Shown: in pieces, positions 17,108 through 21,963 of the stretch
How the letters are laid out: the number at the start of each line of letters is the position of its first letter
Numbering within the stretch: the stretch's first letter is position 1
Assembly (NCBI RefSeq): GCF_013315695.1
Contig: NZ_CP054353.1
Length of the DNA stretch: 64,000 bases
From: Escherichia coli
Lineage (GTDB): Bacteria; Pseudomonadota; Gammaproteobacteria; Enterobacterales; Enterobacteriaceae
Reading direction: 5' to 3' (one strand)
Program-made: the position numbers and the translations under genes
The notes under the pieces: model-generated
Database searches by the model: none
The model's input: only the letters and a program-made list of their open reading frames with translations
What the model was told of the DNA's origin: nothing

Positions 17108-18269
<1,162 letters not shown>

Positions 18270-18449
18270 ACCCGACAGAATAAAATGAGATTGCAGGAAA
18301 ATTCGGTTAACGGAGTGATCGAGTTAACGTTGTTAAGTTAAATATTGGTTTTAACTCTGATTTACATGGTTGCTGTGTTGTTAAATTGTACAAAGATGTT
18401 ATAGAAACAAAATGTAACATCTCTATGGACACGCACACGGATAACAACT
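18270..18449 (+). promoter_or_regulatory. cstA promoter and leader; exact CRP and CsrA sites not resolved
   Basis: Intergenic AT-rich region upstream of cstA. Regulation by cAMP-CRP and translational repression by CsrA are established for cstA; GGA motifs occur near the start codon. Confidence 0.4.
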
Positions 18450-20555
18450 ATGAACAAATCAGGGAAATACCTCGTCTGGACAGTGCTCTCTGTAATGGGA
18501 GCATTTGCTCTGGGATATATTGCTTTAAATCGTGGGGAACAGATCAACGCGCTGTGGATTGTGGTGGCGTCGGTCTGTATCTATCTGATCGCTTACCGTT
18601 TTTATGGGCTGTATATCGCCAAAAATGTGCTGGCGGTTGACCCGACGCGTATGACGCCCGCGGTGCGCCATAACGACGGGCTGGACTATGTGCCGACGGA
18701 CAAAAAAGTGCTGTTCGGTCACCATTTTGCGGCCATTGCCGGAGCAGGTCCGTTGGTTGGGCCGGTACTGGCGGCGCAAATGGGCTACCTGCCGGGGATG
18801 ATCTGGCTGCTTGCCGGGGTGGTTCTCGCCGGTGCGGTGCAGGATTTCATGGTGCTGTTTGTTTCTACGCGCCGTGACGGTCGCTCGCTGGGTGAGCTGG
18901 TCAAAGAAGAGATGGGGCCAACCGCCGGGGTGATAGCGCTGGTGGCCTGCTTTATGATCATGGTCATTATCCTTGCCGTGCTGGCGATGATCGTGGTGAA
19001 AGCCCTGACTCATAGCCCGTGGGGAACGTATACCGTTGCGTTCACCATTCCGCTGGCTCTGTTTATGGGGATCTACCTGCGCTATTTGCGTCCGGGCCGC
19101 ATTGGGGAAGTGTCGGTGATTGGCCTGGTATTCCTGATTTTCGCCATTATCTCTGGCGGCTGGGTGGCAGAAAGCCCGACCTGGGCACCGTACTTTGACT
19201 TTACCGGCGTGCAGCTGACCTGGATGCTGGTGGGTTACGGTTTTGTGGCGGCGGTGCTGCCGGTGTGGTTGCTGCTGGCCCCGCGCGACTACCTCTCAAC
19301 TTTCCTGAAAATCGGGACTATCGTCGGTCTGGCGGTAGGCATTCTGATTATGCGCCCGACGCTGACCATGCCCGCGCTAACTAAATTTGTCGATGGCACT
19401 GGCCCGGTATGGACCGGTAACCTGTTCCCGTTCCTGTTTATCACCATCGCCTGTGGCGCGGTGTCTGGCTTCCATGCGCTGATCTCTTCCGGCACCACGC
19501 CGAAGATGCTGGCGAACGAAGGGCAGGCGTGTTTTATCGGCTACGGCGGGATGTTAATGGAATCCTTCGTGGCGATTATGGCGCTGGTTTCCGCCTGTAT
19601 CATCGATCCAGGTGTGTACTTCGCTATGAACAGCCCGATGGCAGTGCTGGCTCCGGCAGGGACGGCGGATGTAGTCGCTTCTGCGGCGCAGGTGGTGAGT
19701 AGCTGGGGCTTTGCGATTACCCCGGATACGCTAAATCAGATTGCCAGCGAAGTGGGGGAACAGTCGATCATTTCCCGTGCGGGCGGTGCGCCGACCCTGG
19801 CGGTGGGGATGGCCTACATTCTGCACGGTGCTCTGGGCGGCATGATGGATGTGGCGTTCTGGTATCACTTCGCCATTCTGTTTGAAGCACTGTTTATTCT
19901 GACGGCGGTGGATGCAGGTACGCGTGCTGCGCGCTTTATGTTGCAGGATCTGCTGGGCGTGGTGTCTCCGGGCCTGAAACGGACCGATTCACTGCCTGCT
20001 AACCTGCTGGCAACGGCGCTGTGCGTGCTGGCTTGGGGTTACTTTCTGCATCAGGGCGTGGTCGATCCGCTGGGCGGTATTAACACTCTGTGGCCACTGT
20101 TTGGTATTGCCAACCAGATGCTGGCAGGGATGGCGCTGATGCTTTGTGCTGTGGTGCTGTTCAAAATGAAACGTCAACGTTACGCCTGGGTGGCGCTGGT
20201 ACCAACGGCCTGGCTGCTGATTTGTACCCTGACCGCAGGCTGGCAGAAAGCGTTTAGCCCGGATGCGAAAGTCGGCTTCTTGGCCATTGCTAATAAGTTC
20301 CAGGCAATGATCGACAGCGGCAATATTCCGTCGCAGTATACTGAGTCACAACTGGCGCAACTGGTGTTCAACAACCGTCTTGATGCCGGGTTAACCATCT
20401 TCTTTATGGTGGTCGTGGTGGTTCTGGCGCTGTTCTCGATTAAGACGGCACTGGCGGCATTGAAAGAGCCGAAGCCAACGGCGAAAGAAACGCCGTATGA
20501 GCCAATGCCGGAAAATGTCGAGGAGATCGTGGCGCAGGCAAAAGGCGCGCACTAA
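18450..20555 (+). CDS. cstA: Carbon starvation protein CstA (peptide/pyruvate transporter family)
   Basis: 701-aa polytopic membrane ORF MNKSGKYLVWTVLSVMGAFALGYIALN... Confidence 0.93.
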   Translation: MNKSGKYLVWTVLSVMGAFALGYIALNRGEQINALWIVVASVCIYLIAYRFYGLYIAKNVLAVDPTRMTPAVRHNDGLDYVPTDKKVLFGHHFAAIAGAGPLVGPVLAAQMGYLPGMIWLLAGVVLAGAVQDFMVLFVSTRRDGRSLGELVKEEMGPTAGVIALVACFMIMVIILAVLAMIVVKALTHSPWGTYTVAFTIPLALFMGIYLRYLRPGRIGEVSVIGLVFLIFAIISGGWVAESPTWAPYFDFTGVQLTWMLVGYGFVAAVLPVWLLLAPRDYLSTFLKIGTIVGLAVGILIMRPTLTMPALTKFVDGTGPVWTGNLFPFLFITIACGAVSGFHALISSGTTPKMLANEGQACFIGYGGMLMESFVAIMALVSACIIDPGVYFAMNSPMAVLAPAGTADVVASAAQVVSSWGFAITPDTLNQIASEVGEQSIISRAGGAPTLAVGMAYILHGALGGMMDVAFWYHFAILFEALFILTAVDAGTRAARFMLQDLLGVVSPGLKRTDSLPANLLATALCVLAWGYFLHQGVVDPLGGINTLWPLFGIANQMLAGMALMLCAVVLFKMKRQRYAWVALVPTAWLLICTLTAGWQKAFSPDAKVGFLAIANKFQAMIDSGNIPSQYTESQLAQLVFNNRLDAGLTIFFMVVVVVLALFSIKTALAALKEPKPTAKETPYEPMPENVEEIVAQAKGAH

Positions 20556-20667
20556 AGTCAGAGTGAGGGGGAATGTGCTGAGCGTTCCCCTTACTCTCAG
20601 CCCGAGCATGTTGATAGCAATTAAGCCCTCTTAATTCAGGAGGGCATTTGTATTACCGGAGGTTTAG

Positions 20668-20865
20668 ATGTTTGATTCACTGGCAAAAGCCGGAAAATAT
20701 TTAGGTCAGGCGGCGAAACTGATGATTGGTATGCCTGATTACGACAACTATGTCGAACATATGCGGGTTAACCATCCCGATCAAACGCCGATGACCTACG
20801 AGGAGTTTTTCCGTGAGCGGCAGGACGCGCGCTACGGTGGAAAAGGCGGCGCGCGCTGCTGCTAA
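20668..20865 (+). CDS. ybdD: Small DUF466-family protein YbdD, the conserved partner of cstA
   Basis: 65-aa [61 protein letters not shown]... Confidence 0.85.
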
Positions 20866-20874
20866 ATTTGTACG

Positions 20875-21963
20875 TCAGGCTTTAAACGATTCCACTTTTT
20901 CGAACGCTGCACGCAACGTATCCGGTGTCAGCGTGACCGGCAGGTAATGAATGGATTCCACCGGACGTAAGGTGTGGGCAATCACTTTGTCGATCTCCGC
21001 CTGATTATTGATATCCACTTCCAGCTCCGCCAGCGTAGTCGGCAGATGAAAACGCTGATACGCCCCGGTTAATTGCGCCAGCACATCATCCTGACCCAGC
21101 AAGGCGCTTTGCACCAGAATTCCGTAGGCGACTTTGGTGCCGTGGAGAAACTTCTCGGTTTGCGGCAGCACGGTCAGACCGTTATGCACGGCATGGGCCG
21201 CCGCCACACGCGTAAAACGATCGCCCAGACCACCGACCATTCCACCTCCGGCGATAATCGCATCCACCACATCGCAAAATGATTGCGTTAACTGGTGATT
21301 TTGCTGATCGCTCAGCGCCTGTTCGCTACTGTTTAACAAGACGTCGCGAATAGCCTGCGCATTATTGATCCCTAGCCGCACGGTTAGCGGCAACGTTTCT
21401 GGTTGCGGGGCCAGCACCACCGCTTCATACCATTTCGCCAGCGTGTCACCGATCCCCGCCAGCAGATATTGTTGCGGCGCGTTGAGGATAATCTCCGGTT
21501 CCACCAGCACCATAAAATTGGCGTCGTCGAAAATCTCATAATGCAGCGCTTGTCCGGCATCGTTGTACCAGACAGAGAGCGGTGTCCAGGCTGCGCAGGT
21601 AGCGGCGATCGTCGGAACGGCAACAAACGGCAGACCGAGACGGCGGGCGAGGGCTTTCGCGGTGTCGAGCAGTGCGCCGCCGCCGACGCCAATCACCACG
21701 CTGCGATCGTCACCGGACTCAGCCGCCAGTTGTTGTACATCGCTTTCGCTGCAATGACCACGAAACAAAATATGCTTTACCCCTGGCAGTTCAAACGCAG
21801 GCGGCAGTTTGGTTTGTGCCGCAGCAATGGCGCGTTCGCCGTAGATCCACACTGCGCGAGAAAGTTGTTCATCAGTGAAAAAATCGTGCAGGTGATTGAA
21901 ACTTCCGGGATGTGAAAAGTAGTTAGCCGGGCCGACGACCACGCGGATAGGATTGTGAGGCAT
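20875..21963 (-). CDS. ybdH: Iron-containing group III alcohol dehydrogenase family protein YbdH (hydroxycarboxylate dehydrogenase)
   Basis: 362-aa ORF MPHNPIRVVVGPANYFSHPGSFNHLHDFF... Confidence 0.88.
   Translation of the reverse strand: MPHNPIRVVVGPANYFSHPGSFNHLHDFFTDEQLSRAVWIYGERAIAAAQTKLPPAFELPGVKHILFRGHCSESDVQQLAAESGDDRSVVIGVGGGALLDTAKALARRLGLPFVAVPTIAATCAAWTPLSVWYNDAGQALHYEIFDDANFMVLVEPEIILNAPQQYLLAGIGDTLAKWYEAVVLAPQPETLPLTVRLGINNAQAIRDVLLNSSEQALSDQQNHQLTQSFCDVVDAIIAGGGMVGGLGDRFTRVAAAHAVHNGLTVLPQTEKFLHGTKVAYGILVQSALLGQDDVLAQLTGAYQRFHLPTTLAELEVDINNQAEIDKVIAHTLRPVESIHYLPVTLTPDTLRAAFEKVESFKA

Follow-up and report, generated by a model that had tools for sequence, protein, structure and literature searches.

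Two stem-loops in the variable cstA–ybdD spacer of Escherichia coli: a candidate cstA mRNA 3′ end

Introduction

How is expression of the small gene ybdD tied to that of cstA, the pyruvate symporter gene directly upstream of it in E. coli, and do the hairpins between the two genes have a part in this? Constitutive pyruvate uptake needs both CstA and YbdD, the double mutant being no worse than the single ones (Hwang, 2018), and a CstA-YbdD complex has been predicted in an AlphaFold-Multimer study. Because the two proteins work together, with a predicted complex, ybdD would be expected to be expressed by read-through from cstA. An earlier note on this DNA pointed to two stem-loops in the spacer, neither of them followed by a strong T-run, and proposed that they modulate the coupling of the genes by processing or partial termination; the conservation of such gene pairs was taken as a hint of a regulatory RNA structure. 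Judged from the sequences compared here, the hairpins appear to be ordinary ones, such as mark the ends of mRNAs or protect them, in a spacer that varies between strains and species, rather than a dedicated conserved regulatory RNA.

The cstA–ybdD locus

Positions are those of the window, that is, the whole stretch of 64,000 nt that was analysed. The ORF listing places the cstA stop codon (TAA) at 20553–20555 and the ybdD ATG at 20668, which gives the spacer the 112 nt (20556–20667) ascribed to it in the earlier note. The region 20400–20900 is 100% identical to E. coli strain MS 21-1 and, as a 501-nt query, is matched in 5419 of 5426 complete E. coli genomes, with matches that fall into length classes. 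The features of the locus are:

18450–20555, plus strand: cstA, pyruvate/proton symporter CstA (ORF list and RefSeq annotation of MS 21-1)
20560–20597, plus strand: hp1, imperfect stem-loop AGAGUGAGGGGGAAUG-UGCUG-AGCGUUCCCCUUACUCU (folding, −22.6 kcal/mol)
20602–20606, plus strand: CCGAG, homologous by alignment to the K-12 transcript 3′ end 632098; putative 3′ end in this allele
20625–20645, plus strand: hp2, stem-loop GCCCUCUU-AAUUC-AGGAGGGC (scan hit, folding, alignments, covariance model, pair counts)
20646–20655, plus strand: U-rich tail AUUUGUAUUA after hp2, with a conserved RTTTGYA motif (scan; identity 0.69 in 13 taxa)
20658–20662, plus strand: ybdD Shine-Dalgarno sequence GGAGG, 5 nt before the ATG (read in the sequence)
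20668–20865, plus strand: ybdD, YbdD/YjiX family (DUF466), 65 aa (ORF list and MS 21-1 annotation)
20875–21963, minus strand: hcxA (ybdH), convergent with ybdD (ORF list, scan, annotation)

The stop codons of hcxA and ybdD are 9 bp apart (20866–20874), and a consensus scan of 20000–21200 found no terminator-like site between them on the minus strand; the only terminator-like site in that region is hp2. The same scan found no sigma-70-like promoter in 20000–21200, a weak negative, and a promoter belonging to ybdD itself was set aside on this ground.

Folding of the spacer

Both stem-loops are supported by folding, as is the unusual stability of the spacer as a whole. Taken alone, it has a minimum free energy (MFE) of −40.1, where dinucleotide shuffles give −30.1 (z −3.1) and none of 100 was as stable; with flanks the values are −44.2 and z −2.3 (3 of 200 shuffles). 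The antisense strand folds more weakly, at −29.6 for the spacer alone and −34.2 (z −1.1) with flanks. As DNA, the inverted repeats are imperfect, and the hairpins rely on G·U pairs that are present in the sense RNA only.

The first hairpin, hp1, begins 4 nt after the cstA stop codon in all ten Escherichia alleles compared, so that terminating ribosomes would partly melt it. Its arms are gagtgagggggaa (20561–20573) and ttccccttactc (20585–20596), joined in part by G·U pairs and with one bulged G; the free energy is −22.6 kcal/mol in the sense orientation vs. −13.2 in the antisense. It is a stable stem-loop without U-rich sequence 3′ of the stem: the tail, CAGCCCGAGC, contains no T. The second hairpin, hp2, reads GCCCTC-TTAATTCAG-GAGGGC as DNA (20625–20645) and as RNA forms 8 pairs, 5 of them G-C, around a 5-nt loop (−11.8 kcal/mol; antisense, −9.1). 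It is followed by ATTTGTATTA, with 6 T in 10 nt, so that the description "no strong T-run" fits hp1 fully and hp2 only in part; the tail passes a lenient scan (at least 5 T in 8), but its U-tract is interrupted and begins after an A.

Several more elaborate arrangements were considered and dropped. A long-range pairing that joins the stop region of cstA to the start of ybdD, seen in the first MFE structure and suggestive of translational coupling, falls below one expected base pair with longer context, and is missing or inconsistent in the nine other Escherichia alleles. An alternative pairing of GCTGAG (20577–20582) with CTCAGC (20596–20601), which would be pseudoknot-like and possible in this allele only, depends on a motif that the other alleles do not keep. 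Paired CsrA sites, formed by a GGA at the edge of the hp2 loop and another in the Shine-Dalgarno sequence, would not serve for REP-type spacers, some of which (e.g., L027) have no GGA at all; in the literature we found no link of CsrA to ybdD beyond the cstA leader. A search with the Rfam covariance models returned no matches at E ≤ 10 in 18000–21500.

Alleles of the spacer in E. coli and other Escherichia

With spacers as queries against the 5426 complete E. coli genomes, three common alleles were distinguished. The window-type allele (112 nt, hp1 plus hp2) is found in 1188 genomes, in all of them at ≥95% identity and in single copy. Its carriers include NU14, clone D i2 and Nissle 1917, all phylogroup B2 strains, and the allele is apparently typical of B2/ExPEC strains. 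A K-12-type allele of 181–182 nt occurs in 3699 genomes (≥80% coverage), and a TUM20902-type allele of ~153 nt in 375. In TUM20902, hp1 has a larger loop and is followed by a boxC-like module, CCCTCACCCTAACCCTCTCCCC-N3-GGGGCGAGGGG, with neither hp2 nor a REP; the K-12/O157 allele has the same layout plus a classical REP (GCCGGATAAGGCGTTCACGCCGCATCCGGC) where hp2 would sit, and again no hp2. The REP part of the K-12 spacer is found at a median of at least 39 places per genome and the hp1-plus-boxC-like module of TUM20902 at a median of 15, while the window spacer is found at one, in both near and distant (sensitive) searches. The boxC core has no match anywhere in the window.

A REP occupies the hp2 position in most E. 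coli, in E. albertii and E. whittamii, and in two further Escherichia lineages; the hp2 of Citrobacter and Salmonella type is kept in B2-type E. coli. This distribution does not follow the species tree in a simple way, and may have come from polymorphism in the ancestor, from REPs inserted more than once, or from recombination. The possibility that non-B2 alleles retain a decayed hp2 (in a GCACTCT…CAGCAAC segment) was rejected, the similarity being no greater than that of shuffles in three of four alleles.

The hp1 hairpin is confined to Escherichia, and is the sole helix that RNAalifold finds common to the ten alleles (93.6% of cells paired). No covariation beyond shuffles accompanies it, the single double change being matched by 201 of 500 shuffles, divergence within Escherichia being too low for such a test. 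One hp1 arm, GAGTGAGGG at 20561–20569, resembles the boxC outer arm GGGTGAGGG with one mismatch, and such one-mismatch matches are no commoner in the window than in shuffles. The loop (20574–20584 in the window) is hypervariable, ranging from 11 to ~40 nt between Escherichia alleles; a ATGTTGGCGA-like decamer is found there in tandem, with no copies in the window, two in K-12 and O157, and three in CUVET19-1704 and P19_598.

Conservation of hp2

The comparisons suggest that hp2, which is common to Citrobacter and Salmonella arizonae, is the older, ancestral element of the spacer. In alignments it is orthologous to their GCCCTCTCC…GGGGAGGGC hairpin, and the elements in common extend beyond the stem: ATTAAGCCCTCT, GAGGGC and the RTTTGYA of the tail. 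Similarity to the C. werkmanii hairpin has a score of 27, vs. 5.7 ± 2.8 for shuffles, and none of 500 shuffles reached it. A covariance model of this group matches only in the window, in Citrobacter and in S. arizonae, at boxC cores and, less strongly, in a few other genera; it finds no hairpin of hp2 type in K-12, TUM20902, E. albertii or E. whittamii.

Across 13 taxa, pairwise identity is 0.88 for the hp2 stem, 0.69 for the tail (8 nt) and 0.43 for the loop, compared with 0.61 for ybdD third codon positions. With identity above that of the third codon positions in the stem and below it in the loop, the stem appears to be constrained and the loop free to vary. In the helix, 98.9% of cells are paired and three pairs (7 cells) have changed on both sides, in an alignment that was fitted to the covariance model and is therefore biased towards pairing; RNAalifold on a plain MAFFT alignment recovers the same helix with two compensatory pairs. 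Covariation is thus slight, with two or three pairs doubly changed in a mostly invariant stem and in a subset of genera, and the constraint could be on sequence instead of structure. A site for a dimeric transcription factor on the hp2 palindrome was considered and dropped: the arms of the orthologous hairpins are 4 to 9 nt apart, a variation easier to reconcile with an RNA hairpin than with the binding of a protein dimer.

Spacers of other Enterobacteriaceae and of the paralogous locus

A YbdD-based scan yielded 80 loci, in 77 of which both the cstA stop and the ybdD start could be placed; in all but one of these the CstA C-terminus is ≥87% identical. Together with the E. coli alleles they give 79 distinct spacers, not phylogenetically independent of one another, with lengths from 14 to 195 nt (mode 55–63). 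A single GC-rich hairpin of −16 kcal/mol or stronger is present in 76 of the 79, that is, in every spacer of at least 47 nt, a figure that is partly circular since length may itself come from palindromic insertion. Three spacers of 14–20 nt, each from a different species, have no hairpin, which suggests that it is dispensable. Where present, the hairpins mostly start 0–15 nt after the stop codon, end ~18–25 nt before the ATG, and have no U-tract. In the 77 spacers that reach 40 nt, z vs. shuffles has a median of −3.5, and 62 of them fold more stably in the sense orientation (mean difference −3.1 kcal/mol; Wilcoxon p 4e-8, for spacers that are not phylogenetically independent).

Between genera, the hairpin classes are unrelated in sequence. 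They include GCCCTCTCC…GGAGAGGGC in Citrobacter and S. arizonae, with similar ones in Kosakonia and others; a REP type, GCCGGGTGGCGC…GCGCTTACCCGGC, in Enterobacter, Lelliottia and Leclercia; full double boxC-like palindromes in E. hormaechei and others; and ACCCGGCC…GCCGGGTT in Kluyvera. Further classes exist beyond these. The earlier note would have its proposal refuted by a lack of conservation of the spacer in orthologous loci, and this lack is half borne out: conservation of hp1 stops at Escherichia, and that of hp2 takes in no more than B2-type E. coli, Citrobacter and S. arizonae.

The double boxC-like element is found in several spacers of Enterobacter, Lelliottia, Leclercia, Phytobacter and Pluralibacter, between two co-directional genes; its layout is CCCTCACCC-N3-CCCTCTCCCC-N3-GGGGAGAGGG … CCCTCTCCCC-N3-GGGGAGAGGG-N3-GGGTGAGGGG, with −60 to −75 kcal/mol. 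The searches also returned a 465-bp contig labelled Streptomyces sp. DH24, whose encoded YbdD is 98% identical, and Enterobacter-like cstA–ybdD loci in metagenome-assembled genomes labelled "Bacillota bacterium" and "Proteobacteria bacterium"; contaminating or mis-binned contigs are the probable explanation.

A similar arrangement is found at the paralogous btsT–yjiX locus of K-12. Its spacer (49 nt, minus strand; L084, 9081–9129) contains a perfect GCCCCGC-UUCG-GCGGGGC hairpin followed by UUUGUUCUU, and hairpin and tail end 22 nt before the yjiX ATG, the same layout as that of hp2. In the operon list used by Dar and Sorek, yjiX is grouped with yjiA and not with btsT, a hint that the hairpin there may be a full terminator and that the small gene may have a separate promoter.

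Transcript ends and antisense transcription

Published Term-seq data for MG1655 (Adams et al., 2021, supplementary file 1) list a weak 3′ end in the K-12 spacer at 632098(+), with ~1,700 reads, 84 nt before ybdD. It appears only in the LB OD 2.0 sheet, i.e., in stationary phase, when cstA is induced (Adams et al., 2021). In the region as printed there, the position reads …GGGGCGAGGGGACUGACCGA[G]; the boxC-like hairpin ends 10 nt before it, and there is no U-tract. No other 3′ end is reported on either strand in 631900–632399 (Adams et al., 2021). The homologous CCGAG of the window lies 5–9 nt 3′ of hp1, the boxC module that precedes 632098 in K-12 being absent; from the alignment we infer a K-12-like 3′ end in this allele. 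Processing or partial termination, as proposed in the earlier note, is the most plausible mode of action, given the K-12 3′ end after a hairpin module and the terminator-like hp2.

On the minus strand, the Rho table of the same study places a region of termination at 631994, just past the spacer and antisense to the 3′ end of cstA (Adams et al., 2021). It has no plus-strand region at the K-12 locus, in an experiment done at LB OD 0.5, where cstA is poorly expressed. Together with the 9-bp gap that has no terminator, the region at 631994 makes it probable that ybdD is overlapped fully by an antisense hcxA 3′ UTR; hcxA would then be a source of antisense transcription across both ybdD and the spacer. 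In a Salmonella transcriptome, ybdD tracks ybdH, ybdL and ybdM instead of cstA.

Possible roles of the hairpins

The best-supported reading, which we consider somewhat probable, gives hp1 and hp2 the task of forming the 3′ end of the cstA mRNA or of protecting it, with ybdD supplied by transcripts that read through. Its parts would be these. The GC-rich stem of hp2, with AUUUGUAUU behind it and ~20 nt ahead of the ybdD start codon, would act as a weak, leaky intrinsic terminator; hp1, an Escherichia-specific palindrome that may be related to the boxC-type repeats, would block 3′→5′ exonucleases (PNPase, RNase II), leaving a stable monocistronic cstA mRNA that ends a few nt beyond the hairpin. 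ybdD would be carried by those transcripts that read through and are not trimmed. The net effect would be to set the cstA:ybdD mRNA ratio, with no signal sensed, and the exact sequence would be unimportant: among other genera and strains the same slot holds a REP, a boxC-like hairpin or a plain one.

A wider form of this reading, which we regard as unlikely, makes the gap between stop and start a "structural slot" selected for any stable sense hairpin, in which plain hairpin, REP and boxC-like element would replace one another in the gaps between CstA/BtsT-type transporter genes and their DUF466 partners, and the E. coli alleles would be heritable CstA:YbdD valves.

As the main alternative, the spacer might be merely a permissive landing site for selfish or slippage-prone palindromes such as REP and boxC-like elements, with hp1 and hp2 as leftovers or variants without a selected role. 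This is possible, if on balance doubtful. It would account for a spacer that is highly polymorphic within one species, for the multi-copy REP and boxC/HPG1-like module of K-12-type alleles, for the three species without a hairpin, for an hp1 that lacks covariation and holds a variable-number decamer in its loop, and for long spacers, which may owe their length only to an inserted element. It accords less well with a window spacer that is single-copy even in a sensitive search, with an hp2 stem that Escherichia, Citrobacter and Salmonella all retain intact and that is more conserved than third codon positions, or with the bias towards sense-strand stability, the same architecture at the paralogous locus and the K-12 3′ end within the spacer. 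Quite improbable is that the palindromes mainly serve the opposite strand, by protecting the 3′ end of an hcxA mRNA that crosses ybdD in antisense and stops within the spacer or beside it, or by terminating bidirectionally. The close stop codons, the missing minus-strand terminator-like site and the Rho-dependent region at 631994 would all fit such a transcript, and ybdD in Salmonella tracks ybdH and ybdL as expected were antisense reads counted; but both hairpins are weaker in antisense, 62 of 77 spacers favour sense, and no minus-strand Term-seq 3′ end is reported in 631900–632399.

A role in translation is less probable again. REPs within ~15 nt of stop codons are reported to lower output (Liang, Rudd and Deutscher, 2015), and hp1, at 4 nt from the stop codon in every Escherichia allele, might similarly impede terminating ribosomes and lower CstA; many orthologous hairpins also begin within 15 nt of the stop. 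Alternatively, folded hairpins might shorten the distance from stop to start for reinitiation at ybdD, and the 14–20 nt spacers of the hairpin-less species are compatible with direct coupling. Against this, only weak pairing is predicted between the region of the cstA stop and the start of ybdD, other alleles do not conserve it, and ybdD has a strong GGAGG Shine-Dalgarno sequence of its own. Least credible is the regulatory RNA suggested by the earlier note, a dedicated and conserved cis-acting element (like an attenuator or riboswitch) that couples ybdD to a signal. The gene pair is functionally linked and most orthologous spacers have hairpins, yet the comparative data largely exclude such an element: lengths run from 14 to 195 nt, the hairpin classes of different genera are unrelated, three alleles replace one another within E. 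coli itself, no sequence beyond a simple stem is conserved, no alternative conserved structure appears, and Rfam has no match.

Comparison with known elements

In the reading preferred here, of a leaky cstA 3′ end with read-through into ybdD, hp1 is most like the protective 3′ stem-loops described for Rho-dependent or processed transcripts by Dar and Sorek (2018; PMC6061677), which are also stable, lie downstream of a stop codon and have no U-tract. The likeness extends to K-12, where a steady-state 3′ end lies 10 nt beyond the homologous module. Unlike them, hp1 lies inside an apparent two-gene unit and not at the unit's end. By comparison, hp2 resembles the leaky intercistronic members of the intrinsic terminators, with an 8-bp stem, 5 of its pairs G-C, and AUUUGUAUUA following it; btsT–yjiX is the better example. 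It differs in its interrupted U-tract and in a stem of only −11.8 kcal/mol, and is best called a putative terminator. The orthologous Citrobacter tails have 3–4 U in 8 nt, unlike the U-tract of an intrinsic terminator.

The paradigm of REP as an intercistronic mRNA stabilizer is malE–malF. The window hairpins have the same position as such REP/BIME stabilizers, and presumably the same action (for REP-dependent transcript stability, see PMC10100675); a true REP fills the same slot in K-12-type E. coli, E. albertii, Enterobacter, Lelliottia and Leclercia. Unlike REP/BIME elements, hp1 and hp2 lack the REP consensus palindrome (of GCCGGATG…CATCCGGC type) and are single-copy.

HPG1 is presumably the family earlier called boxC (work of Bergler, 1992, and of Bachellier). 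HPG1 and HPG2 were described as "G-quadruplex-hairpin" motifs (Kaplan et al., 2016; PMC5100583), with a cstA>ybdD copy listed at 632058, and the C-rich module of the K-12 and TUM20902 alleles is the reverse complement of the HPG1 motif GGGAGAGGGTTAGGGTGAGGG given there; boxC itself is a 56-bp family with 32 copies (PMC2267715). The hp1 arms (GAGTGAGGGGG / CCCCTTACTC) resemble the boxC outer arms, and the hp2 stem resembles the boxC core. In contrast to boxC/HPG1, the window has no core (CCCTCTCCC-N3-GGGAGAGGG), no four G-tracts and no further genomic copies. A G-quadruplex switch (Kaplan et al., 2016) was rejected for the window allele on the first two of these grounds.

Significance

If the main reading is right, this locus would be one more case of an intercistronic hairpin that tunes the mRNA ratio of cooperating genes, useful in annotation and unsurprising. 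Its comparative value lies in a single intergenic slot that is occupied in turn by a plain terminator-like hairpin, a REP or a boxC-like element; this turnover of hairpin classes is mildly new. Since the spacers differ, K-12 transcript maps should be read onto B2 strains with caution here. The three common E. coli alleles also form a natural series for testing the effects of palindromic repeats on expression, and were the slot indeed selected for any stable sense hairpin, the allele classes (hp1 plus hp2 in B2, hp1 plus boxC plus REP in K-12, and the REP-less one) would give different pyruvate-uptake capacities.
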